Below, piece by piece: positions 9,601-61,141 of a DNA stretch of 64,000 nt. How positions within the stretch are numbered: position 1 is the stretch's first letter; each line of letters opens with the position of its first letter. The stretch is from the NCBI GenBank assembly GCA_008632985.1, contig QPGO01000004.1, forward strand, positions 868,001 to 932,000, given 5' to 3'. A model generated the notes under the pieces. That model was given only the letters and a program-made list of their open reading frames with translations. It made no database searches and was not told the DNA's origin. The position numbers were made by a program, and so were the translations under genes. Origin of the DNA: Psammoneis japonica. Taxonomy: Eukaryota.

Positions 9601-11466
9601 AAATGAAACAATTGCTCCACACCCGGAGACGGATCGATGCATGTGCAATGTCTGTGGGACAAAGCCAGTGACAAATCCATACAAGCGAACAACAAGATCA
9701 GTTGTTGGAAACGGCAACGATGGAGAAACTACAGCAGTGGCAAGCGTTCGACCGGCTGGTGGTTTTGTGGAAATTGTGGCGGCTCCTCAGGTGGGGGTTG
9801 AATCTATGTGTGTGAATGACACACCATTGCTTAACGTGGCTCACGTTCGAGTCGAGGAGCAGTTCAACATGTTGCAAGCCGTGAGAAGCGCCCTGTCACA
9901 ACAAGTTGCCATTGCATCGAGCATGAGCGCATCCCTCCCATCTGTTCCATGTCAAGTGCAACCGGCTCTTTCAAATCTTAATGATCTGATGCGGGATCAG
10001 AGGAAGCAAGACATTGATCCATGCTGTTGTCCTGTCTTCCTACAATGCAAGCTGCAGCAAAGCTGCAGTGTGACGGGGTGCCAACCAAGAGGTCGACCAG
10101 TGCATTCTATGGATTGCCCAAAGAGACAGCAGTCAAGGAGGTAGATGTCATCATTGCTGGGCACACTTCATGTGTTGCTGCTTTTGTTGACATTCTCGTG
10201 AGACAGCTGCCACTCGTAGAAGCGATCTAGCCTAGAGACGCACAGCAGTGTTTTCGAAACAGAGCTGAGTTTCCATGAGTTGTGAATTCACTGTTTTGTT
10301 TCTTATCCACCACACTTCCACAACTGTTGGTTGTTGTGTCCTCCACACACTTCATCACAATGCCACACTCAAGTGCCACCTTTCAAGGGCAGGTGAACCC
10401 TGTCGAAACGGAGATTCGGGTCTGCGGCGGTTGAAGGCACTCCCGTCCTTGGAAGCACCAGTCAACGCCTCACCGGGGGGCAACCCCTTGGCTCTCGTTG
10501 GCCGTCTCAATGTTCAGAGGTGGGGCCACATGAACATTGTTGCAGAAAAAAATTGCCGAGGCGCTGCTGCAGTCAGCAACCTCGGCAGTAGCCCGTGTTG
10601 TTCAAAGACGAGGGCAACCTCGTCTGCCGCTCACACACGGACTTTTCCAAAAGTGGTGGATTGTAGATTGCCAGCCAAAACAAACCACACCCACAACCAA
10701 CATGTGACATCCATTCCATCATATCCCGGTCAACAGCGCTTGTGGTGCCGCCGCACTCAGCAATTCCAATGAACCCTGAAAAGCCACCACTCCAACAACT
10801 TCTAAAGCCTCGTCAACGAAGGGTGAACACTCGGCTGAAGCCAAAAAGGCAACAATACAAAGCATCAGCATGAGAGACGCCATGAATGATCAATGCTTAA
10901 AGGAGGGCTCTTCAATCTGTCAAGAACGAACAGAAATTGCAACGCAAGAGCGGTGAGAGACGAGTTCAAAAAATGGAAAAAGTGCCAAGCATTTCTCATC
11001 CATTTTTCACGTTTTTCATACATCTCTTTTCGTACATTCATTCATCAGAGAGAGTTTTAATGCGTGCTTTGTTGTCACAACAGCATCACAAGTGACGGCG
11101 ACAATTTCGACTGCCGGCTCTTGCAGCTCTCATGGTCGATTTTTTGTGTGGTGTCGGAGGGAAACTCCTGAATTGCGTAGATTTCTACGTAAAATTCACA
11201 CTAGAGATACTTCAACACTGCAATGTCTCGATCTGTGTCACCACACCAAATTACTTCAACATGGGAGCACCCGGAGATCTGACACATCGGGTGGTGAAAC
11301 GGGAGAAAGAATTGACGATGGCTCTTCAAACCACTTCTGCCTTTTAGATCAAGCTCGCTGCCCTCGCAACCCCTTCCTCTCTCCTTCCTTTCTCTCCTCC
11401 TCCTCCTTCTTTCTCCTCTCCCCTCCCCCCCTCTCTTGGAGTCACTAACCCCCCCAAAATCCGTCT
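6693..11466 (+). repeat. Copy 1 of a ~4.77-kb head-to-tail tandem unit
   Basis: Starts tcgagggaggattaggaatgg and ends in a pyrimidine tract plus ggagtcact; colinear with 11467-16225. Confidence 0.97.
6953..10144 (+). pseudogene. DDE-transposase-like ORF, copy 1 (frameshifted, many Tyr->Cys/His changes)
   Basis: Same protein as copy 2, but split over several frames (7202-7495, 7483-8307, 7952-10144). Confidence 0.8.
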
Positions 11467-16225: not shown

Positions 16226-16393
16226 NNNNNNNNNNNNNNCCCCTCTGGTGCACAGCAGTCAGCAGTCGCCATTTCATACCGTGTAGTGTGTTCAGGATTG
16301 CGTGTGAACAGCAACAACACCACTCCGCGTCTGAAACTGTTGTACTACTATTGAGCTTACTATTGACAATCTTGACTGAAAGAAGAAGTGGCA

Positions 16394-19300
16394 ATGTCTT
16401 CTGAAGATCCCGCTGAGGCGGCGCAACATCTCGCGACACAGAGCAACGTTGACGCTGTTTTTGCCGACCTGGAAGAACGGCATGTTGCCGTCGAAAAGGA
16501 GAGAGACGAGTTGCGGGAAAGAGCAGAATCTCTGGAGGGAGTTGTAAAGGAAATTCGGGCCGAACTATCTGCTCGAGATGATTCTCTTCGTTCGATGGAA
16601 TCCGAATTGGCCGCGGCCAAGCGAGAGAGACAGGTGTTCGAAGATACGGCGCTCACCTCTGAGGCCAGTCAAAAGACACAGCAAGAGCGTATGGATCGTA
16701 TGGAGGCGGAAGCAGATGCCCTCCGTGAAGAGATTACTCGCTTGACTGAGTCCAACAAGGAAATGGCGGCCAAGCTTGCCGAGGCGGACACCAAGAAGCT
16801 TTTGTCGTCTTCTGCAGCCATTCCGCTTCAGTACGAGCTAGAGCGGGCCCGAAAGGAACTCGACTCATTATCAGCCCATAACAAGTGGTTGGAAAGCGAG
16901 CTTACAGCCAAGAGCAATCAGCTCACTACGTGTAAAACGGATCATAGCAAGGAGATTATTGATTTAAGGTCCAAGCTCGACAAGGCCGTGGCAGACATGG
17001 AACTTGCGACTTCCCAAGAAGAAACGCTCGTGCGTACGCAAGAAGAACTTCAGGCCAAGGTGGAGCAGCTTTCCACTCAACTTTTCCAACAGAAGCAGGA
17101 GGCTACGGATAAGGCTCTTGCCAAAGAGGACGAGCTTGAGGCCGAGCGACGGCTGACCGCACTACAGAAGGAGCAGCTCGAGCGAATGGATCATCGCTAC
17201 AATGATGTCATCAGGCAGAACAAGCAAATGAAAGAGCTTGCTTCGCAAGCTGCCGCAGAGTCTCGGACAGAACGGGAACGAGTCCGGGAAGATCTTCTGA
17301 AAGAGTCCAAGGCGGCGCTTGAGCAGCAGGCTGAGGAATATGCTCAGAGAGTTGAAGAGCTGGAGAAGCAGCTCGAGGACTCGAATCGACGAAGGATCGA
17401 GGCCGAGGGCGGACTCTTGGCGTCCCCCCCATCTAGACGATCCCGTGCCTTGTTGCCACCCGAAAGGGATTCAGGAGAACGTCTACAAGGCGAACAGGAA
17501 CCTGTAGGTTTGACGGAGCTGTATGCCCGCTTGTCGGAGCGGGAGGATGAGCTGCGCGCAGAGACGATCGAGAGGCGTCGCCTCGAGCTCTACCAAGAAA
17601 AGATCATGGCTCAAATAGAAGCCCAGGCCCCTGTATTGCTGAGACAAAGACAAGAATACGATTTGGCCATGAAGAAACATCAAGAATTATCCGCTCGTCT
17701 CGAAGAGGCGTTTGATGAAACGGCGGCCGCCAAGACGGAAGCGTCAGACCTCCAACGCGAAAACTCTTCGTTACAGAAGAAGGTTGGCGAAATGGAACAA
17801 GAGAATATGGATCTCGCCAAGCAGGTCCAGCACTTGCTACAAAAAATCTCTGGCGACGGAGGAGCGTCCACCCAAGACACAGAAGGGGATGATGTTCCCG
17901 TGTTCGCTAATGTGGAAGAAATCCAGAAACAGAACCAACGTCTCTTGAAGGAACATCGTCGTCTCACAAACACTGTGGCCGAGTTGGAACAGAAGCTCGA
18001 GACGGAGCCTTTGCTGGTGCAATTGGAAGAGAAAAAGCAAGAATTGTCTACTCTTCGCCAAGATCAAAAGCGGCAGGAAACCCTTGTCGCGGGGATTGTG
18101 CAGCAGCGGGACCTCTACCGAGCTCTTCTCGCGAAGCACGATAGCAGCATCATCGAAGGCGGAGATGGTGCCGGTCCTACTGGCGATGATGCCACTGCTT
18201 TAATCCTTGCACAGCAAAAAGAAAAGACGAGGGAAGTTGAATCGAAGAATCGTCAATTGGAAGACGACTTAGCAAAGGTGAAAGCGGAGTCGAGCGCCGC
18301 GAATCTTGCCAAGGAGGCAGCGGAGGAGCGGCTTGCGAGATACGATGCACATTCACTGGAACTGACAAACTCGGTCGATAGGTTACAATCTCAGCTCTCA
18401 GCCGCCAATGCAGCGACTGCACGTAGCGACGCGGAGGCTTCTTATCACCGGGAGAAGTGTGTCAGACTTGAGGAAAGCCTCCAGCTCTCCCGTTCTGAGA
18501 CGACCCGAGCCAATGAGGCCAAGAGGGAAATGCAAAATGTCAACGCGGAATTGCAACAAGCAGTCGCCAAGGCGAATGCCGATGCCGGAAAATACGAGCA
18601 ACAGCCCGACAGGTGAGCGAAGTGAAGCGACGTTTGTTTCTTTTTTTAAAATACATTGCCACCATTGAATCTCACACCGTCCTTTGCGATTTTTATCAGG
18701 CTTCTATGAAACTTCGTCTTGCAGAAACACAGGTAGAGACGGCAAAGTCTGCTGAGGCACGCATTGCTCTCGAGACAAACTCGCTTCGTTCAGAGCTGGC
18801 ACGGCAGGGGGCTCTCCTAGATTCCGTGCAACGCATCGAAGCGAGCTTGTCAGCGAAGAATGAAGAAGATAAGAAGAAGCTTGCGGAAGATTTAGAACGG
18901 CTTTCGCAAGAGCTTGCTTCGGAAAAAGCAAAGAGTTCGGTTGAATTGGAGAACCATGTAAGCAGGGTTCGTGAGCTCGAAGCAACAATGAAAGAAACGG
19001 AGAAAAAGAAGGACGATGCAATGTCGGAGCTACTTCAGGCGAAGGAAAACGCTTTGAAAGTGACATCAGAGACGCAGGCGTTATCAGCAAAGTGCTCTCG
19101 ACTGGAGAGCGAGCTTCGTATTGCCAAGACGAAATTGGGAGAGGGAGATGTAGAGACCGAAGAAGAACAGACGATGCAGGCTCGGATTGAGGTCCTTACG
19201 GCTGAGCTTGACTCAACTCGGTCAGAAGTGACCGCCGCAAAGGAGCGAGTTACAATGTACCAGAACATCTCAAAGGAGAGCGAAGAAGCTCTCGCCGACC

Positions 19301-45700: not shown

Positions 45701-46882
45701 CTACGCTGATGCAATAATGTAGATAGATTTACGCCCTGCATTCCATTGTTTCTCCTGTTGATGTTGTGCGTTGTCGTTTACAAGGCCAGTTTCCAATACC
45801 CGAATCTCGCTCCTTTGAAGACTTTCTGTCAAAATTGTACAATATTCCTCGAAAGGCTTTTCGGCCTCCAAGATACAAGACACGTCCATGCAGGATATCG
45901 GTGGCTTAACGTGAGTTGGCTTGCTCGATTGCTGAATGGTTGTGCACTCGGCTTTAAAGTGTCCAACTATTCCACACCTCCAGCAGGGAAAAGAGGAAAA
46001 AACTTCTTTGATTGCAGCAGTACGCTCATCGTGATCTAAAGGAAGCAAATCACAGGCAGTCACATAGTGCGATGAGCTATGGCATAAAGGACACGGGAGT
46101 TTACGACCACGTCCGATTGCCTGGTCTCTTCTCTCCATTGCCTCCAAGCGAATCTGTCGTTGGTCTGGCGTTTCGTAAAGGGGGATCTCAATGGTTCTAG
46201 AAATACTTTCCTTCTTACTTGTAACAGCGCGCGGTAGACAGCATGGCGCCAAGCACAGAAAAGGACATTTTGCTGGACCCAGTCCATTCACCAAGCCGAT
46301 ACAAGCAGGCGAAAGCATTTTACACAAGTGAATGCCAATCATTGCCAAGGGTGAAGGTAGCGAGTTGAATCGATCAAAAAGAATGTCCGATTCGTGTAAG
46401 TTGCATCGCTCCCAAGTTTCGATATGGGGTCGATGGTCAGCCTCGCATGATTCATTGGCGGCCATGATGTGACTCCAATCAATTGGTGCCTTGTCCAGCA
46501 TGACGATTCTACCGACTCGATTATCCCCTTGAAAAACGTACGAGCAAAGCATCGAGAAGACGCCTTTCCCACAACAAACATCAACCACTGTCACCGGTTC
46601 CACTTTAGCAGAGGACTTCTCCATCCATTCTAACAACGAGGTCAAGGCAACAATCGATTCTTCAACTTCGTGCAACAAGCTCGATTTGTTGAGCAAAGCT
46701 TGCCATCCGGTTTGTCCACCCCACTCGTGCCCCCATTTTCTCAATATCGATATGACATGCTGAGTCACGGCTTGACAGCGCTGGCTCTCATGCAGAGAAG
46801 ATGACAGTCCGTTCTCTTCCAAACGAGCAGCGGCCTTCCACACCCGCCAATACGACCCTGGTGTCTCAGTTTCGTCCACCAT
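45701..46882 (-). CDS. SAM-dependent methyltransferase-like protein with two CCHC knuckles
   Basis: VVDVCCGKG motif I, IGIHLC..LS, LAPCC; CPLC..H..C and CWRC..GH...C. Confidence 0.85.
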   Translation of the reverse strand: MVDETETPGSYWRVWKAAARLEENGLSSSLHESQRCQAVTQHVISILRKWGHEWGGQTGWQALLNKSSLLHEVEESIVALTSLLEWMEKSSAKVEPVTVVDVCCGKGVFSMLCSYVFQGDNRVGRIVMLDKAPIDWSHIMAANESCEADHRPHIETWERCNLHESDILFDRFNSLPSPLAMIGIHLCKMLSPACIGLVNGLGPAKCPFLCLAPCCLPRAVTSKKESISRTIEIPLYETPDQRQIRLEAMERRDQAIGRGRKLPCPLCHSSSHYVTACDLLPLDHDERTAAIKEVFSSFPCWRCGIVGHFKAECTTIQQSSKPTHVKPPISCMDVSCILEAEKPFEEYCTILTESLQRSEIRVLETGLVNDNAQHQQEKQWNAGRKSIYIIASA

Positions 46883-47858
46883 GGTTTTGGTTTGCAGTTT
46901 TTGCACCGCCTCGCACCTCTTTCACAGCCACAACATGGCGCTCAACGCGCGCTTTGAATTCCGCGCCCGTTTCACTTGGGACTGACGTTGCTGTGGTCCC
47001 GCCACCCTTTGCCATCTCTTTCCCCCGCATGCCTTTACCATCATCTCTCTCCGATCCGGCAGCTACTTCGATGCCTCCTGCTGCACCTCATGTCTCTCAT
47101 ACCTTCCGCTCTGCACAGGCACTCTTTACTCTCAGTAAAAAAATCCACAGATCAGATCATGATGAATGTGCGAATGATGCCAAAGAGATCACAATGCGTG
47201 GTCGTTGCAGGGGGTCTCTTTAGAATGGATGTCAGTGCCACGAAAAGATGCTGCACTGAAAGCATGTTGGTTCTGTGGTGTCTTTTCAGAGGGTGCATCA
47301 ACCCGGGTGTGCCATGCACTGAAGAAGGAGTGCAGGAGATGGAGTCACCAAAACATGAGTTGCTGCTCCAGCCCACGCACTTTGATGAACGGCTGTGTCT
47401 CACTGTCTTCATGAGCATCACATGAGGACATTGTGGTTGGCATCATTCATCAAAAATGTGCCATCATCTTAAATGAGCTGCTCTCAAGAAGGTGGGTGTC
47501 CACAGCTCTCTTGCTCTGCCCGCGTCCCTGCTGCCAAGAGACGAGGAGCTCGACAGCACATTTCTCACTTTTGTCAGCATCAACTTGATCACAGACCTCT
47601 TTGGCTTGACAGTGGTCTTTTGACAGTGCCCACTGATGTGGCCCAGCACAATTCACAGATGGGGCATCATCAACACTTTGAAACAAGCTTCAAAATCTTG
47701 TCCAGCCAACTCTTTTTTTGTCCTCTTCCACCTTCTTTGTGCGCAAAGCCTTCAAATGATGGCCAGCACACCTTTGCAACACCTGCTCAATGGCAAGGCA
47801 ACTGCAGAGCACAAAACAACAACGGACAATGAAGAAACTGCAAGTTCTTGAAGATGAG

Positions 47859-48664
47859 AAATGTCACAAAAACAATTGCTGCAGCACTGGCCAATGAGTG
47901 AAAGAGAAGCAACCACTTTGCAGTGCAAAAAGCACCATGTGAAAAAGAGAGCGGCTCTTCCCTTCACCAAACAAGAAAATCCCTCCCAACATTTTCCCCT
48001 TTCTGGCACCTGGCAGACCATCATCATGTGACAGCATGGCTTCAAACACACCCCCAACAGCTGTGCAGCCAGCATCAGAGGAGAACAAGTGCCTCTCCTT
48101 GGAGCTTGGAGAGTGTCCTTGCTGCCAAAATGTCACAAAAACAATTGCTGCAGCACTGGCCCATGAGTGAAAGAGAAGCAACCACTTTGCAGTGCAAAAA
48201 GCACCATGTGAAAAAGAGAGCGGCTCTTCCCTTCACCAAACAAGAAAATCCCTCCCAACATTTTCCCCTTTCTGGCACCTGGCAGACCATCATCATGTGG
48301 CAGCATGGCTTCAAACACACCCCCAACAGCTGTGCAGCCAGCATCAGAGGAGAACAAGTGCTTCTCCTTGGAGCTTGGAGAGTGTCCTTGCTGCCAAAAT
48401 GTCACAAAAACAATTGCTGCAGCACTGGCCAATGAGTGAAAGAGAAGCAACCACTTTGCAGTGCAAAAAGCACCATGTGAAAAAGAGAGCAGCTCTTCCC
48501 TTCACCAAACAAGAAAATCCCTCCCAACATTTTCCCCTTTCTGGCACCTGGCAGACCATCATCATGTGACAGCATGGCTTCAAACACACCCCCAACAGCT
48601 GTGCAGCCAGCATCAGAGGAGAACAAGTGCCTCTCCTTGGAGCTTGGAGAGTGTCCTTGCTGCC
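47859..48664. repeat. 269-bp tandem repeat, 3 near-identical copies
   Basis: aaatgtcacaaaaacaattgctgcagcactgg recurs at 47859, 48128 and 48397. Confidence 0.97.
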
Positions 48665-48768
48665 CCCCCCCCCCCAAGATCTGAAAGGAGCACAAAAAGT
48701 TGCCAGACAAAAAAAATGTTTTTCCTCTTGCTGACATTGCAAAAAGAAAAAGAGACCAAAAAGCAAGA

Positions 48769-49013
48769 TGACAGGATTTGAACAAGATTTTAGTTTGTCA
48801 CACACAATTGTGTGTGCTCTCAGTTCCACGCGCGTCGCGCGATGCAGTTTGCTTTCGAGCCACGCGGCTCACAAGAATGACAACAGCAGTGCTGATGTCA
48901 CGACACCAGTCTTTCGGCTCCTGCAATGGTCTCTGCATGGAGACTCATCTGCCATTTAGACAGCAGCAAGGAGTCATTGTTTTCTTCCACCCAGTCATCT
49001 TCGCTTGCTGTCA
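48769..49013 (+). repeat. 5' LTR (245 bp)
   Basis: Direct repeat of 54353-54599 with TG...CA ends. Confidence 0.95.
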
Positions 49014-50227
49014 GATCAACAGCCTTGCTCTTCATTGTCCACTGAGCATTCATCATCATCATCGAGAAATTTTTCGATGACGCGCACCGTTGGCGGTGGA
49101 AGCACACATCTACCTTCTTCACTGCTGGATGCTGGATTAAATCCACACATTTGGATTTATCCAATGCCTCCCATCGTTGGATGCATTTGTTCAACGTGTG
49201 TTTGTTTGACCAGGAATTCCCGAATTCTCAAGCATCTGAGATTCCAGATTCCTTGTGGCGGATCCTGCCAATCCATCCGCTCGTGTCCATGCGCACACGA
49301 TGCAAACCCTTGACTCTGGCCCTGCTCCACGCACACCAAGTCTGCCACCTTGCATCTGCGCTGGATTGCTGGTCTTCTACAGCCCTGCAAGGTCCACAAG
49401 GACAACTGTGAGAGGGACGCGTTCCAGCTCTGGGTGGGACCTTGCACTGCTGCACTGTGACATCAACAGTTTTTTGGATCACGTCGCATGTCGCGCACGC
49501 ACATTTCTGCGTGTTGCATTCTACGAAATTGTTTCATGCTCCCTGTTTTGTGAAGCCAAAGGCTTTCTATTTTCAACAGTTGTGAGAATGAAAATGTGCT
49601 GGGCATGTTCTTCAATGTCTGAAGAACACACCCGGGCAAACTGTCAATGATGTGCTGCAAGCATGGAGGAGGAGATGCATTCGTAAAATTGCCTCTTTTT
49701 CTGTTGGCAATCATTCATGTTTTCATTGCAGCAGGAATTTACTGCAGAGCTTGCACATGGAATTCTACGGGCCCAATGTCACACGGAGTCCCACCTGGGA
49801 CTGGAACCCATCGAGGAAGCAGTTCGTGATCACAGCCTGCGTTGGGGTGAGGGTGCATTTCCCATGTTTGTTCGTCCCTCCACAGCGCCAAATTTGGCCG
49901 GCCTGATCGGGTCACCCAACCGACATAAAATGAGAACGGTTCGGAGGTCTTGTCCACCTCTGGCCAGCTTGTCGGCAGGGGTTTTTAACCCGTTACTCCG
50001 CTCTCAGGCAACCCAAAGCATCGCCAGCTGCGGGTTCAGACGTGCCGGCACAACTCTACAGACCAGATGGGAAGCTTGGCACTTAACTACAAACAGGATG
50101 TCATGGCCCGGCGGCTTCTGACTCTTGAGACAGTTCAAGACATCAAGTCAAGATTCAAGTCAAGTTTCAAGTCATTTCAAGCTCACCCTCCGACTCTAGC
50201 TGGTTCCGACATTCACCCAGTTGCAAC

Positions 50228-53200
50228 ATGGTTCTCACCAGGCAACAACAAATCAATGGCCTCGAGCACATTCTAGGCACTGTTCTGAATCAAGCTGCAG
50301 ACAGTCCATTGCGCTCCGCTCTCAACATTGATGGAGCCGATTCGCATCAGGACCTTTTCACTTTTACACCAATGCAATTGGATGTCCTCGTGCACAACGA
50401 CGGCACCAGTCAAATGCCCTTGCCACATGGTTGCAAAGCACAGATGGCTGTGCTGACCAGCCTGCACATGGCAAAAGCGCGTGGCGGCGTGGATGTCAGC
50501 AATGACCCTCAACTGTTCATGCAAGAGGAGCTCACCAACTGTCATCTCAGTCCTGAGCATGTGGCATCCCTCTCCATGGGTGCAGCACCATCTGCTCCCA
50601 CCCCTGGCTTGTTGCCACCCAAACCACGTGATCCCGTGCGTGACTTTAAATGAGGCATCAAACGTGACCCGCTTGCCTTCGTGCTTCTCAAGTCTGACAA
50701 ACAGTGGCACACGTGGCACATCTCCATCATCGCACAGGCCCACTCCCAAGACGTCGCATGCATTCTTGATCCGACGTACAAGCCCTCTACAGCTGAGGAC
50801 AAGGCCCTGTTTGCTGAACAACAGAAGTGCATGTTCGCCGCATTTGAACGGATTTTGCAGAATGACAAAGGCAAGGCTCTTGTTTGTCAACATGTCGGCT
50901 CCTCTGATGCTCAAGCAGTGTGTCGTGATCTCTCCAAGCATGCCCTTGCTTCTGCTCATGCATCCCTGGAGTCCTTGACCCTTCTCACGTACCTCACCAC
51001 TGCTCACCTTGGTGATGGCACCTGGAAAGGATCTGCTCATGCCTTCATGCTCCACTGGCAGGACCAGCTCCACAAGTGTGAAGCTCTTGTCCCGGGTGCG
51101 GACCATTTCTCTGCTGGCCAGAAACATGTCATGCTTGAGAACACCGTTCATCCCATTGAGGAACTCCATTCAGTGAAGAATCAGGCCGATCAGTTCTGCA
51201 CGCAGAATGGAAAGGGGCTCTCTTACGAAGAGCACTGTGTGCTCCTGCTCTCTGCTGCAGCACAGTGCGACAGCACGTTCACCCCCAAGACGGCTCCTCG
51301 CGCCCCGCGCCGTGCCATCTACGAACATGACCTGGTCCCTGACGACCCTGATGACGATGCATTCTTTGACATCGACAGGGATGTTGACGTCATTCAAGCT
51401 CATGCTGCACAAACTCGCGGCAATTCCCTCACCAAGGAACAATGGCATCGCATCCCGCCGGACCATCAGCGCATTTGGGACACCTTGCCCCAATCCACTG
51501 AGGCCATCATTCTTGCCAACTGCCATGACTCGATGGCGGTCAACCTGCATGACCTCCGCCTTGGCAGTGATGGCGACGTCAACTTGTCCGCCAACACTCA
51601 CGATCTTGCGTCAGCCTCCACACAATCTGACGCCACAGCCAATGCAGCCGATGCCAACCCCATTCTGGCTCATCTCACCAGGCGCAAGCCTCTGCCACCC
51701 GGCGACTTGCAACATCTCCTGGCACCTGAATGGCCTCCTTCTGCCTGTTCTGGTGAGAAACCGCCCGGATCTGCACCTTCCGTCCACTTTGACGCGAAGC
51801 CCATTGACACTGACATTGAGATCAACGGCCACAAATGCCATCGCATCAACAACCACAATGTCGTCTGCTCTGCCTCAACCCACAAGTCAACTCACAAAGG
51901 TGCTCTCATGGATCATGGTGCAAACGGTGGCATCGCCGGTGATGATGTTCGTGTCATTGCCCGCGCTGGTCGCCAGGTTGACGTCCAAGGTGTCGACGAT
52001 CATCAACTGGTGGACATTCCCATTGTCGCTGCCGGTGGTGTCATCCACACACAACGCGGCCCTGCCATTGCCATTCTTCACCAGTGTGCCTGCACTGGAA
52101 AGGGGAAGATGATGCACTCTTGCAGCCAGCTCAACCGGTGCAAACACGATGTCAACGATTGGTCCATCAAGGTCCCCAATGGTCTGCAGCACATCACCAC
52201 CATTGATGGATGCGTCGTGACCATTTGCATTAAAGCCGGCCTCCTGCACATCGCCATGCGCCCACACACCGACGCCGAATGGGACACTCTGCCGCATGTC
52301 ATTCTCACTGGTGATGACACATGGGATCCATCTGTCCTTGACCACCAGTTCATGGATGATGAGACGTGGTGTGATGCCATGTCTGACCTCCAAGATGACC
52401 CAACTGCCAACCTCTTTGATGAGTTTGGCAACTGTCATCACCACCATGTTGTCAACAATGCCATGCTTGCACACTCCGTCCTTGATGATCACCTGCTCCC
52501 GACATCTGATTTCTTCTACGAATGCCATGAGCGCGAACTCAATCCCAAGGATCCTGACTTTGAGTCCCTCTGCCCCTGCTTTGGCTTTCTCCTGAAGGAC
52601 ACTGTCCGCCGCACTTTTGATTGCACGACGCAGTGCGCCCGCATGCCAGCCAGCATGCACCTGAAAAAGGCGTGCAAATCACCCAACCCAGCTCTCAATG
52701 TCCACCGACGCAATGAACCCGTTGCCACCAACACGGTCTGCTCCAACACCCCTGCCATTGACTCTGGTTGCACCAGCGCCCAGCTCTTTGTTGGCACGGA
52801 ATCTCTTGTCACTGACGTGCATGGCACCAAAACTGACAAAGAATTTGTCAACACCCTCGAAGACAACATTCTCGCAATCGTGGTGCCCGTCCAAGCTCAT
52901 CAGCGACCGTGCTCAGGTTGGGATCAGCAACAAGGTTCTTGGCATCCTTCGTGCCCTCTTCATCTCCAGTTGGCAAAGCGAGCCTCACCACCAGCATCAG
53001 AATTTTGCTGAACACCGCTGCCAAACTGTGAAGACCATGGCCAACACTGTCATGGATCACTTCGGGTCCCCGGCTTGCACCTGGCTGCTCGCCCTGATGT
53101 GCGTGTGTTTTGTGCTCAACCACACGGCATCCGCCAAGCTCCACTGGCATGCCCCCACTGAGGTGCTGTCCGGCTCTGCTCCCGACATCAGCCCGCTCCT

Positions 53201-54300
53201 CCGCTTTCAATGGTGGGAACCCATTTTCTGCCACCTGGATGATTCCGACTGGCCGCCCAAATCCCGTGAATTACGTGGTCGCTTCGTTGGCATCGCCGAA
53301 CACGTTGGTCACCAAATGATGTTTAAAATTCTTTCTGTCAACACTCAGAAGATTCTCTGCCATTCCAACGTGCGCTCCACCCATGATCCGTCTGCTCCAA
53401 ACCTGTGTCTTGATCCTCCTGACAAGAAATCTGCTGACCCTGTCATTAAATCCCGCCACGACTCCGAGAATTCGCCAGACTCACCAGATGGGGAGGCGAT
53501 CAGGATGCCCAAAATGCCGGTCTTTGACCCCGAGGATGTCATGGGATGCACCTTCCTCATGAAGCCACAAGAGGATGGACAACACCTCAGAGCCCGCATC
53601 GTCAAAGCCGTTGAGGACCATGACTGGAAAATCAGAGGCAATCCCGAACTGGTCAAGTTCATTTGCTCCATCAACAATGACGAATGCGAGGAAGTCCCAG
53701 CCTGCAATGACATCATGCACCACATTGAGCAAGAAGACGAGGACCCAACTCTCTGGAAGTTCCAACACATCGCATCGCATGAAGGACCATTGCGACCCCA
53801 TGATCTCTCTTGGAAAGGCTCAAGCTGCAACGTCATGCTCGAATGGGAGAATGGGGAGATCACGTCCGAACCCCTTGCCATCATTGCCAAGGATGACCCC
53901 ATCACCTGTGCCATCTACGCGCGTGAGCACAGCCTTCTAGAAACTGAAGGATGGAGATGTTTTTGCAAGACAGCACTTCGTCAGAAGAAGCCATTCCACA
54001 TGGCCAACCAAGCCAAGTTGTGCTCCTTTTGTGCTGCACCACGATGCAAGTGCGGGTGTGAAGTGCCACGGGACTACAAGCATGCCATGGCCCTTGATGA
54101 GCACAATGGCAACCACAAGTGGGGAGACGCAACGGACCTCGAGATGACTCAGCTTGATGAGTGCGAAGTCTTCCACGACTGCAGACACCACAAGGATTCC
54201 AGTGCTCCATTGGGACACAAGAAGATCCAGGTGCATCTCGTCTGTGATGTCAAACATGACGGACAGCACAAAGCAAGGCTTGTTGCCGATGGACACCTCA
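50228..54300 (+). pseudogene. Copia gag-pol pseudogene (RT truncated, no RNase H)
   Basis: Protease-like ALMDHGANGG, integrase-like LISDRAQ and QNFAEHRCQTVK, EWENGEITSEPL, RT start VHLVCDVKHDGQHKARLVADGHLT; stop at 50651 and a frameshift near 52875. Confidence 0.9.
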
Positions 54301-54352
54301 CAAAATCCGACTTCAAATCTGTCGCTGTTGACCCCTCAAGCAAACTGGGGAG

Positions 54353-54599
54353 TGACAGGATTTGAACAAGATTTTAGTTTGTCACACATGATCACATGTG
54401 CTCTCAGTTCCACACGCATCGCGCGATGCAGTTTGCTTTTGAGCCACACGGCTCACAAGAATGACAACAGCAGTGCCGACATCACAACACCAGTCTTTCG
54501 GCTCCTGTGACAGTCTCTGCGCATGGAGACTCATCTGCCATTTAGACAGCAGCAAGGAGTCATCATTTTCTTCCACCCAGTCATCTTCACTTGCTGTCA
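54353..54599 (+). repeat. 3' LTR (247 bp)
   Basis: Direct repeat of 48769-49013, preceded by the PPT and followed by the TSD. Confidence 0.95.
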
Positions 54600-57075
54600 C
54601 AAGATGCGCTGCAGCAGCATTGTTTTTGCTGCAGTTTCTGGCGGGGCAGATGTGCTTCATCCTGGGCATCTCACCACAACTTGTTTTTTCACCACTGGCA
54701 GCTGCCCGTCCTGTGCTGAGCAGTGTGCTTTTCTGACACAAGTGACAGCCAGCCAACAGGGTTTTGCAGCATCTTTTGGCTGGGTCAAGTCATGGGGCAA
54801 GTTTTTCTCATGTGGGCACATTGTGCATCAGCCTCTGCATGTTGAACACTGCCCATTCTTGTGCAAATTAAGCAGATGTGCATGACAAAGGGACAAATCA
54901 TCTTTTGCATTGCTGCTTTTTCATCCAGTGATTGCCCCATTGCTTGTTTGCATTGCACCTTGAGCACATGTGGCACTCTCAATGCTGGATGCTGGTTTCA
55001 CTTGCAGTTGAAACATTGTCTCCAATGGCGCCAGCTCCAAGCAGTTTGAGCCTTTCTAAGAATTTGAGCTGAGCAACCAACTGGGTGTGCATTGAGACCA
55101 TTTTCCCCTCTTGCACTCCACACACAAAAATCATGCACATTGCAACAAAAGCTCACCATGACAATGACGAGCAATTCATTGGCAATGCCTTCCCATGATG
55201 TGGTGCCCATTGGTGTGCTCAAGAATGCAAACGCCGCCCACTCCTGTCTCCTGAACATTTGACACCAGCCATCTCTGGTCATGTGCTTGGCAAGTGGCCT
55301 CACAGTTGGCAGAGTGAGGTTGGGTTAAAACATTTTTCTTCTCAATGCAAAAACAACAAACACTGTTGTTGTTGCTGGCCCACCCTGCTGGTGGCGGTGG
55401 CAAATCACTTGTTTGTGATGTCATCAGCAATTGCCTTTGTGGCACAAGCCTTGCTGTTGTTGCAACAAAGCAACAACAACAACAACCACAGTGCAGCCCT
55501 GTTGCTGTGTCATTTTGCTTGAACAAAATTTCCAAAAATCCTGCTCAAATGAAAGGGTTTTTTTGACATGATGCATTGCCTCCCAGCACTGGTTCCCTCA
55601 TGGGGCAGCTTTTTTTTGTTTCCCTTGCCTTGGTTGATCATTTCTGATGATGAGCTGTTGCAGCTCCTTTTTTTCATTTTATGCCAGGGTTTGCTGTGGC
55701 TGATTGCTCTTGACAAACCCATCTTTTTGTCAGCTTTGCTCTGCCCTTTTGTTCTGAATTCCACAAGCTGCGCCACAGCTCTTTTGCCCAGCTGCCCTCA
55801 GTCTCTTTGCCAACACTCTCCCACTCATGAGACTGCAACTTGTGCCAGCTGCAGACTGTCACACCCGTGAAGGCATTGGCTGGAATCAAAATTTTCCATC
55901 CTTCTGTTGGCCACCTCTGCTGGACGTGGCGCATCATCATGTCGTCTTCCTCATTGCTTGCAGCAACTGACTGTTTAGATTGGTTTCAAAACACACTGCC
56001 AGTTTGCTTGTTGCTGCTGTTGATTCTTCCAAGCACATTGTCTGCTCTTGATGGTGGACAAAAATCAAGACATTTCATGTGAGCCTTTTGACTTGGGGGG
56101 ATTCTTGCAGCAAAATGCACCACTCCATTGATGTCATTTCCCTTGCTGGAATGCCAACAAAATTGCAAAAGGCACATTGTGCAGCCACCTTTGTTCATGG
56201 AGGTCCCTCTTTCTCTGACATGATGTTTGATCCCAACTTCTCTTTGCTGCAAGCAGGGCTTCCAACATTGGTGTAAATTCTCTGGACACCATGGCAGTTC
56301 TCAGGCTGGACTTTCCACCTTCCAACAGGGTTGTGACAGCAATGGTGACTCCTCCTTTGACAGCCATTTCCTGTCAAGTCACACATGTGTTTTGCTGGTG
56401 ACATTCATTTGCCTGTTTTTTTTTTGAATTTGGATCTCACATCTCATGGAGGCAAAGGCATCACTGGAAGTGACAGAATTCAAAATGCACAACTCAGCAC
56501 AAGTCCTTTGCTTTCTTTGTTCACACATTGCTCTTGCCAGGTGTTCTTCAAGGTTTTGCTTTCACACCCTGCCTTTGTCCCAACTGTGCCAAGCCATGCA
56601 GTGTGCTGCCTTGCAATGATTGCACCTGCTGCAAGTGCCAACAGCAACCCCACCTGTTGCTGCACCCAGCTTTGAGCTGTGTTGGTGTGGTGGCTTTGAT
56701 TCTGCCACACATGTTGATGTTTTTGTGCACAGCAATTGCCCTGTCAAGACTGCCCAGTTTTTTGCTGAAGCCATTGATGACATCAGGTCCTTTCTGCATG
56801 CTCCTGCTTTGCTTTTTTCACAGAAATGTGGCAAAGGTCAAGCCAAAGGAGGCTGTGAACCAAACAGCTCCAGCTTTTGTTCCAGCAGGATTCTGGTTTT
56901 TGAGACAGCCAAGGACAAATCCAAGAGAGCAGAGCTGCGTTGTCACTTGGGCTCATCATGCTGGGTGCCACTGGCAACTTTGCAAAATGGATCATGACAG
57001 ATTTCAGGAACCTGAGTGAACCAATTGACCAAGCAGTTTCTGCTCTGGCACAAAGTCAAGCACACTGATGGCTTC

Positions 57076-57690
57076 TGTCAGGAACCCATCATCATTTTGT
57101 CCTTCTGTGGTGCAAAACAATGGCAGCTTGCAAGCAGCTGATGCTGCCTCTCTTCTTGTTCCCCAGCTCTCAATCTTGTCAGCAGCAGTGGTGGGCTCTT
57201 CTTGTTTTTCATTTCCTCCTCACCTGCTTGAAACACGTTTTTTGATCCAAGCACATTGACAGCCATCTGACAGATTTTGCCAACTCAACATTTCCCCACT
57301 CAGTGCCATCATGCCACCCTCTGCCTCCACATCATCTCATTCGGCATTTCATTTGGCAGCTTTTTTGGAGTCATGACAGTTTTGGAAACCCACACAAACA
57401 CCAAATCTGATGCATCAAAGGATTTTGTCAGGAGCTCATTGTCACCTTGTCTTTTTGCACTGCAAAACAATGGCAGCTTCAGCTGCTGGCACTGCTGCCA
57501 TTCTCTTCTCATTTCCCAACTCTCAATCTCATCAGTGGTGTGTGCTCTTGTTTTGCCTTTTCTCCTTGGTGCCCACTTGTGATTTTGCCAACTCAACATT
57601 TTCCCACTTTGGCGCCAATCTCCAGTGCACCATTGTGCCACTCTCTGTGTCTCTGCATCACCTTCTTTGGCAGCTTCTTTGGCTCTGTTG
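57076..57690. repeat. Old, diverged ~310-350-bp tandem duplication
   Basis: tgcaaaacaatggcagctt at 57111 and 57461; gattttgccaactcaacattt at 57273 and 57581. Confidence 0.8.
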
Positions 57691-60600
57691 TCATGCAGTG
57701 CCCCAACAATCTTGGGGTCCTTTGCAGTCATTGGCAGCCCCAAAGAGCCATCACTTGAATCCATCCATTTCAGTGCTGCCACTCACGCCCTTGATCCCTG
57801 CACACATTGACTGCAGCAACCACTCCAGTCTCATCACACTCTGTTGACTTAACATCATGCATCTGCCATGGAAAACAGCATCGCCTCTTCATCCTCTGAC
57901 CTGCAATCTCTTCTTCCCATCTTGCTGCATTTTTAGACTTTGCCTGTGCACTCAACTCTGTGGTCAGATTGGGGAGCTCATTCCCAAACATGCCATCCTT
58001 TGTGTTCTTGTGGTTTGGGATTTCTGCTGTGGCACAAGTGGTGTGCAGCAACTCTGCAACCAATCATTTCTCTGGGGTCTGACTGGGCACAGATGTTCTT
58101 TTCCTCAAGTTGTCTGCTGCACCTGGTTTGGGATCACAGTCTTGCAGGTTGATGCACTTCCACTCAAACATTTTGCCACTGCCAAGCCTTGCACATCATC
58201 AGTTGGAAGTTGAATGAGTGCACTTTGCCATCATCAATGCAATGTTCCAGGATGAGTCTTCTGGCACCACTCAACAGTGTTTTGGAAGTTCATGTTGTGG
58301 CAGTGTGTCATTGCATGAACTCAATCAAGCTGTTTGCTTGGCACCCAACATGCCATTGGGTTCTCATGCCTGTCACTTCCCTTGTGCAGTGGGTGTGAAC
58401 AATTTGAGTGCATCATCTGTGGGACCTGAAAACAGGGGGGTTTCCATGCAATTGTTCAATTGTGCCCATGCCAACACTGAAGAGCAGTGTGTTTTTCCCA
58501 CAGCTGGAAATGTCAAATTGAGTTGGCTGTCCAACCATTCAACAATGAGAGTCACATTGCCATGATGAGCCAGCCGCTGAAAAAAGCAACAGAAAATTGG
58601 CAGCTTTGTGAACTCAATTGTCATGCAAAGCACTTCTTTGATTGTCAATGCAGCACATTCATTTGCCCACTTTGTGCACTTGTGGAAGGCAAATGAGAAT
58701 GCTTGCTCAGCTGTGACAATTGTTCCATCTGCTGAGCTCATTGTTGGTTCTCAGATGCACCCAAAACATTGCAATCAGGTGATGCTCAGCTTCTGTGAAA
58801 AGCATGACAGACATGCCAGCTGCCTGTTGACATGGCATTTCATTGCGCCAGTGCCACAAACTCAATTCCACCTCAGAGCCACCACTGCCCAAAAAGGCTG
58901 CAGTGGTGCAGCAGCGCAATGTGCACAGCACAGTGCAAAACTGGCCTCCCAAAAATGGAAGCCACCATCCCATGCAGATCTCCTGTGGTGCGCTGATGGC
59001 TTGACCCATGGCTTCTTCCTTGCTCACACAACCACCACATGTCAGTTGATGAAGCTGTGGGTGGATGATTGAGTGAGAGTCTAAAATGCCTTCACTTGCA
59101 TTTGGGACAGGCAATTGCCAACAGCCCTTGCCTGTGAAACCCTTTAGATGACAACACCACTTTGACAGTGTTGAGCAGCTGGAGCAATCTGAGCATGAGC
59201 AACCTCCTTGCCAGAGACACACAAAGATGTGCCCCACCAAATGCCAGTGGCATGTCATTGAAAGCTGTTGCAACACTTGGAAAATGCACTTGCAACTGGT
59301 TTTGAGCAAGCAAAAACTCCCAGACCTGCACCTGCTGCACAGATTGCACTCCACAGCCAGGATGAAAGGAAAAGATGCCACCACTGAGGGGGGTGCAGCG
59401 GCAATGCACACTTGCCATTGCATGGCAAGCACAACAGCTGATGTGTGCTGAGCAACCCACACACCTGTCAAATCAGTGCCTTCCAAAAAATTGCTGGAGC
59501 TGTGAAAGTCAAAGATCGAAAACAACAATTTGTGCCAAATGAGCCCCCCATCAGCTTGCAAGCAGGCACACCAATTGGTGATGAAGTGCATTGGTCTGTG
59601 CTTTGAAGGGCTTGGAGAAAGTGCCACAAGACACACAAGTCAAACATCATCAGATGAACATGTGGCACGGCGTTGTCTTGGTGACCTTTTTGCGTGCACA
59701 TTGGAGTTTAAGAGACTCAACCACCTCAAAAGCAACAAGAAAGATGACAGCGGGGGTTTGCCAGGGACAATGGAAAGACAAACACAAAATGTGGGAAAGC
59801 TTGACTGGGAATTGCAAGAAATGAAAACTCCAAAGTTCCCAGATGCCTTCAATGTCTGGTTGGTGTCCATCATGACAGTGGCACAAAATTCAAAAATGAG
59901 CGACACTCTTAAAGGAGTGTGTTTGTTGGGTGGTGCTGGCTTGTCCCACACAACTGGAAAGCTTGTGTCAAGACACTGAGTTGAAAGACTCATGCAGCGC
60001 TGCAGTGTTGCAGCATGCCCAAGACTGGGAAAAAGAGCGAGGGTTGCATCAGCAGAGAATGAGAACCTGTGAAACAAATCAACCCCAAACAGGCAGGAGA
60101 CATTGCTTTCTGGGGTTGTTCCAACAGATCTCGTGGGTCAAGAGAGTGCTCAACACTGCACAGCAGCACTGGATGCTCTCTTGAAAGCATTGCGCCATTT
60201 CCATGATGTCAGCCTGAGCAAGATCGGGAGATGCCAATGGCAGGAAGCATCCAAAACAACCCCAAACTGCCTTCTTGCATTGACCCTCCACAAAAGCACA
60301 GAATGACTTGAACACCACATCACCCCTGCTGATGGTGAGTGACAGAATCCTTTCTGCAGACATGTTGTCGTGCTTGCGATGTTTGAGCTGTGTGCCAACC
60401 TTGTTGCACTTTTGATTGACAAATGTCGCGCACATGACACAAAGAAGAATGCAGGCGATGATGTCCATTCCTTGAAATCTCTTTGCAGAGTGCACAGGCA
60501 TCTTGGCAACTCACCTCAGGATTCATGTCCTGAGCTTGTTTGATGACATCCAAGTGCAAGTGCTCAGCTGCTTGTGGGTCATTCAAGGACTTGCACACAC

Positions 60601-60843
60601 CCAAAGCCTCGGGGCTTTCATGTTGAATCATTCAATTGCATTCAATGTCGAGTTCGTCCCAAGATCCACGTGATGAAATGAACTTGCTTGAAATAATGAG
60701 ATGTCTGATGTCAATGTCGGAGTGAGCAGCTCTCTAGATTCAGACAGCAGCTGAACACTGTGGGATGGTTGGATCGGGCTGGAGGTGGTGGGGACAGACG
60801 AAAGCACAAAATGTGCGTAGAAATCACCGTACAGACCCAAATT

Positions 60844-61141
60844 CAGGGTTAACTAATTGCAAAGTTTTCTGCAGCAATCAGATTGCAGTCAGTCGATTGC
60901 ATCGCTGTGGTCTGACGAACAGATTGCAATCGCCCCGCCGGCCAGGCGCGCCCCCCGCGCAGGGGTTTTAGCTATAAAAAGAGCTCGAATTTCGATTGCA
61001 ATCGATTGCAACAGTCGATTTAGATTGTGATTGCGACCTCGGCTCTTTCCCGACAATCAGGTCATTGCAATCGAGTTTGCAACAGCGATTGCAATCAAAG
61101 TGAGGCTGATTGCAATCGATCCTAGCAATTAGTTAACACTG
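60844..61141. mobile_element. hAT-type MITE (298 bp)
   Basis: 17-bp TIRs CAGGGTTAACTAATTGC / GCAATTAGTTAACACTG (1 mismatch), 8-bp TSD CCCAAATT, and many internal GATTGC(AATC) repeats. Confidence 0.92.

Follow-up and report, generated by a model that had tools for sequence, protein, structure and literature searches.

The closest described system is found in Bigelowiella natans, where integrated foreign DNA undergoes TpA→TpG/CpA hypermutation (Mettrop et al., bioRxiv 10.64898/2026.01.13.699255). The sections of this preprint on which we draw report, from mutation-accumulation lines, a de novo DNA mutation that is restricted to TpA, affects both strands and proceeds at ~6e-7 per site per generation, and they hold an ADAT2/TadA-like adenine deaminase responsible for it. 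The process affects an integrated giant virus and a virophage, 230 of 231 hypermutations are AT>GC with no CpG component, and TpA-depleted genes show an enrichment of TE-type domains (reverse transcriptase, DDE). Clusters are defined there by a Rho of at most 0.43 for TpA and of at least 1.52 for CpA+TpG. Flanking-base context, LTR pairs and CpG are not discussed in those sections, and the preprint is the only description of TpA-directed hypermutation of chromosomal DNA that we found in the literature.

Here we describe a degenerate LTR retrotransposon enclosed in a block depleted of both TpA and CpG, within a 64-kb window (the whole stretch of DNA analysed). The block and the element are arranged as follows.

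47230-60690, no strand: TpA desert with CpG loss, enclosing the element (from TA counts and observed/expected ratios, o/e)
47230-48763, no strand: left part of an older host repeat, free of TA and CG, with three 269-bp tandem units at 47859-48664
48764-48768, + strand: left target-site duplication CAAGA, abutting the start of the 5' LTR
48769-49013, + strand: 5' LTR, 245 bp, TG...CA, containing 12 CG, 2 TA, 30 CA and 21 TG
49014-50227, + strand: leader / 5' internal region, for which no homologue or Pfam match was found
50228-54352, + strand: decayed copia polyprotein: a gag-like, protease and integrase region followed by roughly the first 25 residues of RVT_2
54353-54599, + strand: 3' LTR, 247 bp, TG...CA
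54600-54604, + strand: right target-site duplication CAAGA, abutting the end of the 3' LTR
54605-60690, no strand: right part of the older host repeat, nearly without TA and CG

The element has the termini of a Ty1/copia retrotransposon, with TG...CA direct repeats and a 5-bp duplication whose two CAAGA copies are identical at 5 of 5 bp at both outer LTR edges; because this target duplication is intact, the LTR pair can be taken as a single insertion. The purine run GGGGAG adjoins the 3' LTR. A tblastn comparison with 120 homologues (best E = 2e-177) covered 50228-54350 on the + strand. The alignment stops ~25 residues into the RT, the RT/RNase H region being missing by deletion, and PF07727 is present in the homologues, downstream of the aligned part. 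An in-frame stop interrupts the polyprotein at 50651-53, its frame changes near 52870-52890, and none of the element's own ORFs matched Pfam. The nearest named proteins come from Cylindrotheca closterium, Attheya and MMETSP transcripts. A short-fragment protein search for close family members returned a best match of 67% identity and no family member, and no further copies of the element were found within the 64-kb window. Like the diatom Ty1/copia CoDi lineages, the element has short TG..CA LTRs, a 5-bp duplication and an integrase apparently placed before the RT; unlike those lineages, as far as the consulted text portrays them, it is deleted for RT/RNase H, its ORFs are too mutated for Pfam, and its protein identity to any database entry is at most 58-67% (Maumus et al. 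2009, PMC2806351). A term search of the available text of that paper gave no mention of deamination or RIP. Judged from its sequence, the element is a dead, non-autonomous, diatom-type Ty1/copia retrotransposon with a deleted RT/RNase H.

Alignment of the two LTRs revealed 21 substitutions, every one of them a transition (21/21), and one 2-bp indel (GC, after 48934 and at 54519-54520). At seven sites the difference was reciprocal, one LTR having CA where the other has TG (5' LTR / 3' LTR):

48805-06 / 54389-90, reciprocal site 1
48809-10 / 54393-94, reciprocal site 2
48811-12 / 54395-96, reciprocal site 3
48896-97 / 54480-81, reciprocal site 4
48924-25 / 54508-09, reciprocal site 5
48927-28 / 54511-12, reciprocal site 6
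48978-79 / 54564-65, reciprocal site 7

The remaining seven substitutions set CG against CA (five) or TG (two), with CG retained in the 5' LTR at six of these single sites and in the 3' LTR at one. The sequence-only reading had reported the seven reciprocal sites, quoting strings that are all present in the sequence, and had described the other substitutions as CG versus CA or TG with one 2-bp indel; the alignment confirmed both statements. None of the 21 changes lay outside YpR dinucleotides, and the C>T/G>A and T>C/A>G classes were both represented. YpR dinucleotides make up ~53% of LTR positions, giving a probability of ~2e-6 that all 21 changes would fall inside them. When 21 random transitions were simulated on the 5' LTR, a mean of 0.36 reciprocal sites resulted, and at least six arose in 0 of 200,000 trials. 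Raw LTR divergence was 8.6%, with 0% outside YpR, which bears out the earlier expectation that LTR-divergence dating would be inflated here; such dating would be meaningless in genomes of this kind unless YpR dinucleotides were masked.

The block around the element spans ~13 kb and has sharp edges, at which the borders of TA and CG depletion coincide within about 100-200 bp. Only 49 TA occur at 47300-60500, against ~38 per kb outside. Over 48001-60000, TpA o/e was 0.02-0.12, CpG o/e 0.05-0.65 and TpG+CpA o/e 1.6-2.0 (1.61-1.98 in six consecutive 2-kb windows, all with TpA o/e in the above range), compared with ~0.55 for TpA and ~1.0 for CpG in the rest of the window; CpG decay is thus seen in the repeat block without loss outside it. 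A degenerate 350-bp duplication in the right flank (57070-57300 / 57420-57608) carries eight reciprocal CA/TG sites. The older flanking repeat gave no Pfam matches, and no relatives of a 310-aa ORF were found among 1.84 billion representatives.

We examined the direction of mutation at 490 conserved columns, using 240 homologues. Only 3 of the 24 conserved Tyr residues were kept, 14 having changed to Cys, 4 to His and 1 to Trp, and conserved Arg (n = 33) was kept at 16 positions and replaced by His at 6, Cys at 5 and Gln at 2. All other conserved residues were kept at 353 of 433 positions (Tyr vs. others, P = 3e-12). Tyr codons (TAY) gave both Cys (TGY) and His (CAY), with equal enrichment of TG and CA. 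From these codon changes we conclude that TA→TG/CA and CG→TG/CA mutation both occurred, and on both strands.

This signature overlaps with those of several known processes. Methylated-CpG decay in the silenced transposons of plants, vertebrates and diatoms likewise turns CG into TG or CA on both strands, is confined to repeats and inflates LTR ages, but it leaves TpA alone, whereas here the loss of Tyr (21/24) exceeded that of Arg (17/33). Fungal RIP is similar in producing dinucleotide-specific transitions of resident DNA, on both strands, in targeted repeats or domains; it turns CpA into TpA, so TpA rises. Its chemistry and direction are opposite to those seen here, where TpA is destroyed and nearly absent and CpA/TpG is created in excess, and we ruled it out on this ground. 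The B. natans process shares A>G / T>C change at TpA on both strands, together with TpA-poor, CpA+TpG-rich clusters of sharp extent, and our block clears the published cluster thresholds by a wide margin. As far as the partial text of the preprint allows a comparison, the two cases differ in the target (here an LTR retrotransposon plus an older repeat, there integrated viruses), in TpA o/e (0.02-0.12 here, 0.45 there), in the spectrum, which here is not purely AT>GC and includes heavy CpG→TpG/CpA change in the same domain, and probably in the host, which is unlikely to be B. natans, given that the window holds genes whose ORFs run long and unbroken and that the element's named relatives come from diatoms. 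The comparison nevertheless suggests that the TpA process at this locus matches the TpA hypermutation of B. natans (10.64898/2026.01.13.699255).

We compared the locus with 80 related copia loci, in many of which CpG o/e falls to 0.05-0.25. One of them, the metagenome element L071, has a TpA o/e of 0.02 and keeps conserved Tyr at 1 of 28 positions (12 His, 7 Cys, 8 Phe) and Arg at 35 of 41, in agreement with the AT>GC-only spectrum described for B. natans in the part of the preprint cited above. Two others, L052 and L038, show heavy replacement of Arg by Cys, His, Gln or Trp and no loss of Tyr; the contrast with L071 indicates that the TpA and CpG processes are separable. LTR pairs at 12 related loci consisted mostly of 100% identical contig-end overlaps or of old, mixed divergence, and among these 12 we saw neither the YpR-only pattern nor a pure-CpG comparator.

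We somewhat favor the explanation that two dinucleotide-specific transition processes, acting at the DNA level on a repeat domain that holds a one-time copia insertion, produced the LTR differences. A single insertion of the RT/RNase H-deleted element into a host-targeted repeat domain would have been followed by TpA→TpG/CpA hypermutation, through A>G change on one strand or the other, and by CpG→TpG/CpA decay, presumably via deamination of 5-methylcytosine. All 21 LTR substitutions would then reflect both processes hitting each LTR separately after integration, and each reciprocal site would be a once palindromic dinucleotide that was struck in both LTRs, on opposite strands. Independent post-integration hits on opposite strands of palindromic CG or TA are the simplest reading of these sites. 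The sequence-only reading had proposed such hits in chromosomal DNA, and the confinement of all differences to YpR and the intact target duplication support it. Both the timing relative to the insertion and the enzymes are matters that we infer. Indirect signs of change in resident DNA are the LTR-pair differences and the sharp borders common to both depletions.

Decay of 5-methylcytosine alone is a possible, though less likely, explanation, by which each of the seven reciprocal sites began as a CpG when the element inserted and was lost independently in the two LTRs, the TA desert being inherited or formed before insertion. The single differences are in keeping with it, since all seven are CG-based and none is TA-based; TA in one LTR against TG or CA in the other occurred at 0 sites, whereas a post-insertional and not fully saturated loss of TA should have left ~1-3. 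Across family copies, one single-difference site shows all three states (CG, TG and, in another contig, CA), the related copia loci are often CpG-decayed, and the element, lacking RT, could derive from a degraded source that was copied in trans. The number of reciprocal sites argues against CpG decay alone. From the six CG/CG and seven single sites we obtained p = 0.37, which predicts 1.0 reciprocal site of CG origin (P(≥7) = 1e-4), and p = 0.48, estimated from Arg codons, predicts 2.0 (P = 0.004), so that the ratio of intact to single sites yields one or two reciprocal sites where seven are observed. A CG-only origin would require p of ~0.62 per copy and ~25-30 ancestral CpG in 245 bp, against a range of 4-19 in 11 LTRs of relatives. 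Relative to a copia baseline, the 5' LTR is not deficient in CpG and has ~10 fewer TA and ~14 more CA+TG, the "expected TA" baselines being taken from other sequences. Site 3 also reads TG in 19 other contigs, with no mixture of CG, TG and CA. A one-rate CG-only model was weakly rejected (G-test P = 0.035, simulation P = 0.13), and unequal CpG methylation could rescue it.

On balance the statistics lean toward TA, or a TA/CG mixture, as the source of the seven sites. TA had been named earlier as a possible source dinucleotide, a suggestion strengthened by the massive TA→TG/CA change in the element and by the published TpA hypermutation. Former TA sites probably account for at least some, and probably most, of the seven, a split that we infer. 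The earlier prediction was that intact copies would mostly read TA there; the reads of other copies at sites 3 and 4 are TG, which counts against the two-process explanation. A flank rule for assigning the individual sites (edited A followed by a pyrimidine; T>C not after a pyrimidine) was dropped after conflicting data: it was favored by the element's Tyr codons, in which T>C after a pyrimidine (yielding His) occurred in 0 of 7, and by the old flanks, but L071, where 10 of 12 Tyr→His changes follow a pyrimidine, and the tetranucleotide balance of the element itself contradicted it. If valid, the rule would demand the disfavored product at five of the seven sites.

Import of the differences appears improbable. 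By this explanation the LTRs would carry family polymorphisms, brought in by ectopic gene conversion among thousands of copies or by assembly or polishing that mixed reads. The family is indeed abundant, with 12,257 contigs of run X1 aligning to the element at ≥80% likeness, and just 53% of the words sampled from the element occur in X1. The 2-bp LTR indel is polymorphic in the family; at 54523 roughly half the depth lacks it. One of the 40 variable places listed out of 1376 is site 3, which reads TG in those 19 contigs (99% of depth), and an inserted string in one contig gives TG at site 4; both match the 5' LTR and are neither TA nor CG. Imported sequence should, however, also carry ordinary subfamily substitutions, which are many at internal sites, and no LTR difference lies outside YpR (0/21). 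The CA of the 3' LTR at site 3 is moreover real in X1 (depth 49/3431, about single-copy) and not an invented base. A degenerate 30-mer taken from the start of the LTR had no matches in a metagenome scan, and a protein search with the translated LTR frame for "translated" LTR copies gave no candidates.

Editing at the reverse transcription stage, with a deaminase acting on single-stranded LTR DNA between the plus-strand syntheses and leaving minus-strand C>U and A>I in one LTR, mainly the 3', is very improbable: with the 5' LTR as ancestor, 16 of 21 columns (11 of 14 sites) do fit a 3' LTR with plus-strand G>A and T>C (by columns, binomial P = 0.027), that LTR is the mutated one at six of the seven CG singles, and sites 3 and 4 read in other copies as they do in the 5' LTR, but three sites or five columns (48805-06, 48856, 48924-25) have the opposite polarity, the bias by sites is not significant (binomial ~0.06, an estimate), both bases of CpA would have to be deaminated jointly seven times with almost no single events, and the TA and CG loss in flanking non-LTR DNA is left unexplained. 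The single-strand polarity expected of APOBEC/ADAR-type RT-stage or RNA editing was thus not what we observed, with 16 columns running one way and five the other. The earlier strand argument against such editing holds insofar as both polarities occur and the flanks share the signature; its premise of no strand bias was too strict, as a mild asymmetry exists (11/14).

Returning to the two-process explanation, we tentatively propose that a diatom-like host may possess a domain-targeted DNA adenine-deamination defense that erases TpA from resident LTR retrotransposons after integration and spares YTAR, alongside CpG decay, in one sharply bounded chromatin domain. If so, the LTR pair would be a natural record of a defense acting on both strands, and environmental copia relatives (L071, P0027) would make the process widespread in marine protists. 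The window shows the TpA signature near completion on a retrotransposon with diatom relatives, and a second, environmental element (L071) shows it in pure form, which suggests a wider genome defense of marine protists rather than a one-strain curiosity. Because stop codons are nearly absent from TA-free DNA, gene callers will report long, spurious ORFs in each of the six frames, and since the mutated proteins are missed by Pfam, such elements are under-annotated.

TA survives in both LTRs at only two places, each of them TTAG, and the YTAR class accounts for 11 of the 13 TA that survive in the saturated flanks (P = 4e-7). This points to YTAR as a refractory context that the TpA process may spare, offering a testable clue to the specificity of the enzyme. 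A partly TA-poor region at 8000-11000 was rejected as a candidate, its signature being different and its TA classes free of YTAR skew.

Repeat search and MAFFT alignment delimited two direct repeats, both starting with TG and ending with CA, as the LTRs of a copia-type retrotransposon (48769-54599).

Features of the element and its surroundings (window coordinates)
~47,230 to 60,690: TA-desert block, from dinucleotide counts
48769-49013: 5' LTR, 245 bp
54353-54599: 3' LTR, 247 bp

The five bases CAAGA stand directly before the 5' LTR and directly after the 3' LTR, and the element therefore arrived by one integration event. The LTRs differed by 21 substitutions, all 21 of them transitions, plus one 2-bp indel. 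Seven dinucleotides were reciprocal, CA in either LTR being matched by TG in its partner; in the 5' LTR they lie at 48805-06, 48809-10, 48811-12, 48896-97, 48924-25, 48927-28, and 48978-79. Seven further sites were single, with CG opposite CA (n = 5) or TG (n = 2); the 5' LTR had retained CG at six of these seven single sites. None of the 21 substitutions in the LTR pair fell outside the YpR dinucleotides (CG, CA, TG, and TA), which cover 53% of LTR positions. When 21 random transitions were simulated on the LTR, the mean number of reciprocal sites was 0.36, and six or more were seen in 0 of 200,000 trials. The strings that the sequence-only reading had quoted for these differences are all present in the sequence, and the LTR-pair pattern is genuine, far outside what chance would produce. 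The GC indel (2 bp) separating the LTRs, at 54519-54523, varies among family members: roughly half the depth in X1, a sequencing run with family copies, lacks both bases, a sign of repeated slippage in GCGC or of exchange from copy to copy, as it would seem.

Within the surrounding block, observed/expected ratios were 0.02-0.12 for TpA and 1.6-2.0 for TpG+CpA; 49 TA were left within 47300-60500, compared to ~38 TA per kb outside. CpG was nearly gone from the older flanking repeat (47,300-48,768 and 54,600-60,500), about half of it was retained within the LTR element, and the TA and CG depletions start and end at the same places. No recognisable protein was found in the older flanking repeat. 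Because TAA and TAG cannot occur without TA, reading frames are open in all six frames: at 48700-54700 and 54600-61000, stops were rare and long ORFs ran in six frames (39 of them with 80 aa or more in 6 kb), and gene callers would call spurious proteins in these TA-poor stretches. The rest of the window carries host genes of ordinary eukaryotic type, whose ORFs are long and uninterrupted. The flanking repeat also holds an old degenerate 350-bp duplication (57070-57300 and 57420-57608), whose copies differed at 8 reciprocal CA/TG sites and by 16 transversions and 19 further transitions. The block thus shows the reciprocal pattern in paralogous DNA generally.

Within the old repeat devoid of TA and CG, three 269-bp tandem units, 98-100% identical, lie at 47859-48664. 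A unit contains 0 TA and 1 CG, and the copies differ from one another by four ordinary point changes. Next comes a poly-C tract of ~14 bases, at ~48663-48676. The left border of the block is adjoined by an ORF on the minus strand (45701-46921) that encodes a Methyltransf_32 domain plus a CCHC zinc knuckle and in the 3' part of which TA is already reduced. Farther away, 14 N at 16226-16239 mark an assembly gap in a gene-dense region, next to an ORF (16376-18616) with nucleoprotein TPR-like domains.

The internal region of the element encodes, on the plus strand, a protein with strong relatives (best E = 2e-177, 58% identity), many of which contain PF07727 (RVT_2); a Pfam search of the element's own ORFs gave no match. 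The only named relatives were from the diatoms Cylindrotheca closterium and Attheya and from MMETSP transcripts. With 120 relatives as tblastn queries, coverage extended over 50228-54350. The coding sequence is interrupted by a stop codon in frame at 50651-53, and its frame changes near 52870-52890. The reading frame ends ~25 residues into reverse transcriptase, immediately ahead of a brief stretch of purines and then the 3' LTR, from which we conclude that reverse transcriptase and RNase H were deleted.

The direction of change could be read from conserved codons in a pile-up of 240 homologues on the element, which gave 490 columns with at least 60% agreement among at least 10 homologues.

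Fate of conserved residues in the element
Tyr, 24 columns: 3 kept; 14 Cys/TGY, 4 His/CAY, 1 Trp/TGG
Arg, 33 columns: 16 kept; 6 His, 5 Cys, 2 Gln
All other residues, 433 columns: 353 kept; various replacements

Loss of Tyr exceeded that of other residues (P = 3e-12) and that of Arg (P = 0.005). The Tyr and Arg codon changes place both TA to TG/CA and CG to TG/CA in the lineage of this copy; as judged from these codons, TA loss is more complete than CG loss, and both strands are involved. The sequence-only reading had proposed that the LTR differences arose in chromosomal DNA after integration, through events at palindromic dinucleotides that struck both strands, and this core inference survives, as does its claim that LTR-divergence dating would be inflated here. 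The strands were indeed both hit, with a mild asymmetry to be added: with the 5' LTR as ancestor, the plus-strand change was G>A or T>C in 16 of 21 columns (P = 0.027), a polarity that was not significant when counted by sites (11 of 14).

Each of the seven reciprocal sites may formerly have been TA or CG. The six positions with CG in both LTRs and the seven single sites give a per-copy loss of 0.37, at which 1.0 CG-derived reciprocal site is expected (P = 1e-4 for at least seven); at the Arg-codon loss of 0.48, 2.0 are expected (P = 0.004 for at least seven). An origin from CG only requires ~25-30 CpG per 245 bp, and the LTRs of 11 relatives had 4-19. Relative to the copia baseline, the 5' LTR showed no CpG deficit, ~10 missing TA, and a surplus of ~14 CA+TG. 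The site counts, the CpG requirement, and the 5' LTR composition would speak for TA, or for a mix, and we put at roughly even the chances that most of the seven sites were formerly TA. It is rather unlikely that most were formerly CG, a reading favored by the single differences (7 of 7 CG-based, 0 of 7 TA-based) and only weakly rejected when one CG-only rate was fitted to the counts 6:7:7 (P = 0.035; 0.13 by simulation). Gene conversion, assembly mixing, or editing at the reverse transcription stage is left with the remainder of the probability.

Run X1 contained 12,257 contigs of the element's family, and site readings were taken from the 40 of 1376 variable places listed and from an inserted string. 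Site 3 (48811-12/54395-96) read TG, as in the 5' LTR, in 19 contigs (99% of depth), site 4 (48896-97/54480-81) read TG in the one inserted string, and family LTR variants in these data had TA or CG where both window LTRs have CA. If the X1 copies have the same source as the element, the 3' LTR would have altered both bases of a dinucleotide, which neither simple model predicts.

Of the 13 TA that survive in the saturated old flanks, 11 were YTAR, against 18% expected (P = 4e-7). Within the LTR element, 4 RTAY and RTAR sites were left versus ~146 expected from the copia baseline, ~20% of YTA sites survived, and both TA common to the two LTRs (n = 2) were TTAG. A stricter rule, in which the edited A is followed by a pyrimidine, fits the element's Tyr codons (7 Cys and 0 His after a pyrimidine) and the tetranucleotide balance of the old flanks. 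It fails in L071, a related copia locus from a metagenome (10 of 12 Tyr-to-His changes after a pyrimidine), and in the element's own balance, and was therefore not used to assign the seven sites. Elsewhere in the window, 8000-11000 is moderately low in TA (16 per kb) with normal CpG and includes a 731-aa plus-strand ORF without a Pfam match (7949-10144); its surviving TA have no skew to YTAR, and the stretch therefore does not resemble the product of the block's process.

A metagenome scan with protein alignment returned 80 copia loci. L071 (1-2766) is a TA desert (3 TA in 2766 bp; TpA observed/expected, 0.02) that kept 1 of 28 conserved Tyr (12 His, 7 Cys, 8 Phe) and 35 of 41 Arg. The Tyr-to-Phe changes, TAY to TTY, are transversions, and most non-Tyr residues are kept; L071 could be a still-functional lineage that purges TA by conservative replacement, escaping hypermutation. 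P0027, a JGI/IMG protein of 800 aa, had Cys or His at 10 of 16 conserved Tyr and kept 23 of 27 Arg, as read at the protein level only. It is the third related copia sequence with heavy Tyr-to-Cys/His change, after the window element and L071. Two other loci, L052 and L038, showed massive change of Arg to Cys, His, Gln, or Trp without Tyr loss. Since L071 and P0027 lose Tyr with most Arg kept and L052 and L038 lose Arg without Tyr loss, the TA and CG processes are independent, and the TA process appears from these sequences to have acted in no fewer than two further relatives of the element, L071 and P0027, both without Arg-codon decay.

Full-text searching of the literature for TpA hypermutation found one description, a 2026 preprint on Bigelowiella natans (Mettrop et al., bioRxiv 10.64898/2026.01.13.699255). 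According to its accessible text, an integrated giant virus and virophage mutate ~1000-fold faster than the remaining genome in mutation-accumulation lines, almost only by A>G and T>C, always at TpA and on both strands; TpA-poor, CpA+TpG-rich clusters genome-wide show enrichment for reverse transcriptase and DDE domains, and a DNA adenine deaminase resembling ADAT2 is the candidate enzyme that the authors put forward. The same portions of the preprint make no mention of CpG, flanking context, or LTRs, and a term search of the accessible text of the 2009 diatom CoDi paper (PMC2806351) gave no mention of deamination or RIP. The match between the TpA hypermutation signature here and the process published in 2026 lends strong, if indirect, support to the TA idea. 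The block exceeds the preprint's cluster thresholds by far. It is a new instance of this very recently described kind of process. Compared to B. natans, the host lineage is probably different, the target class, an LTR retrotransposon, is new, and TpA loss is joined with CpG decay.
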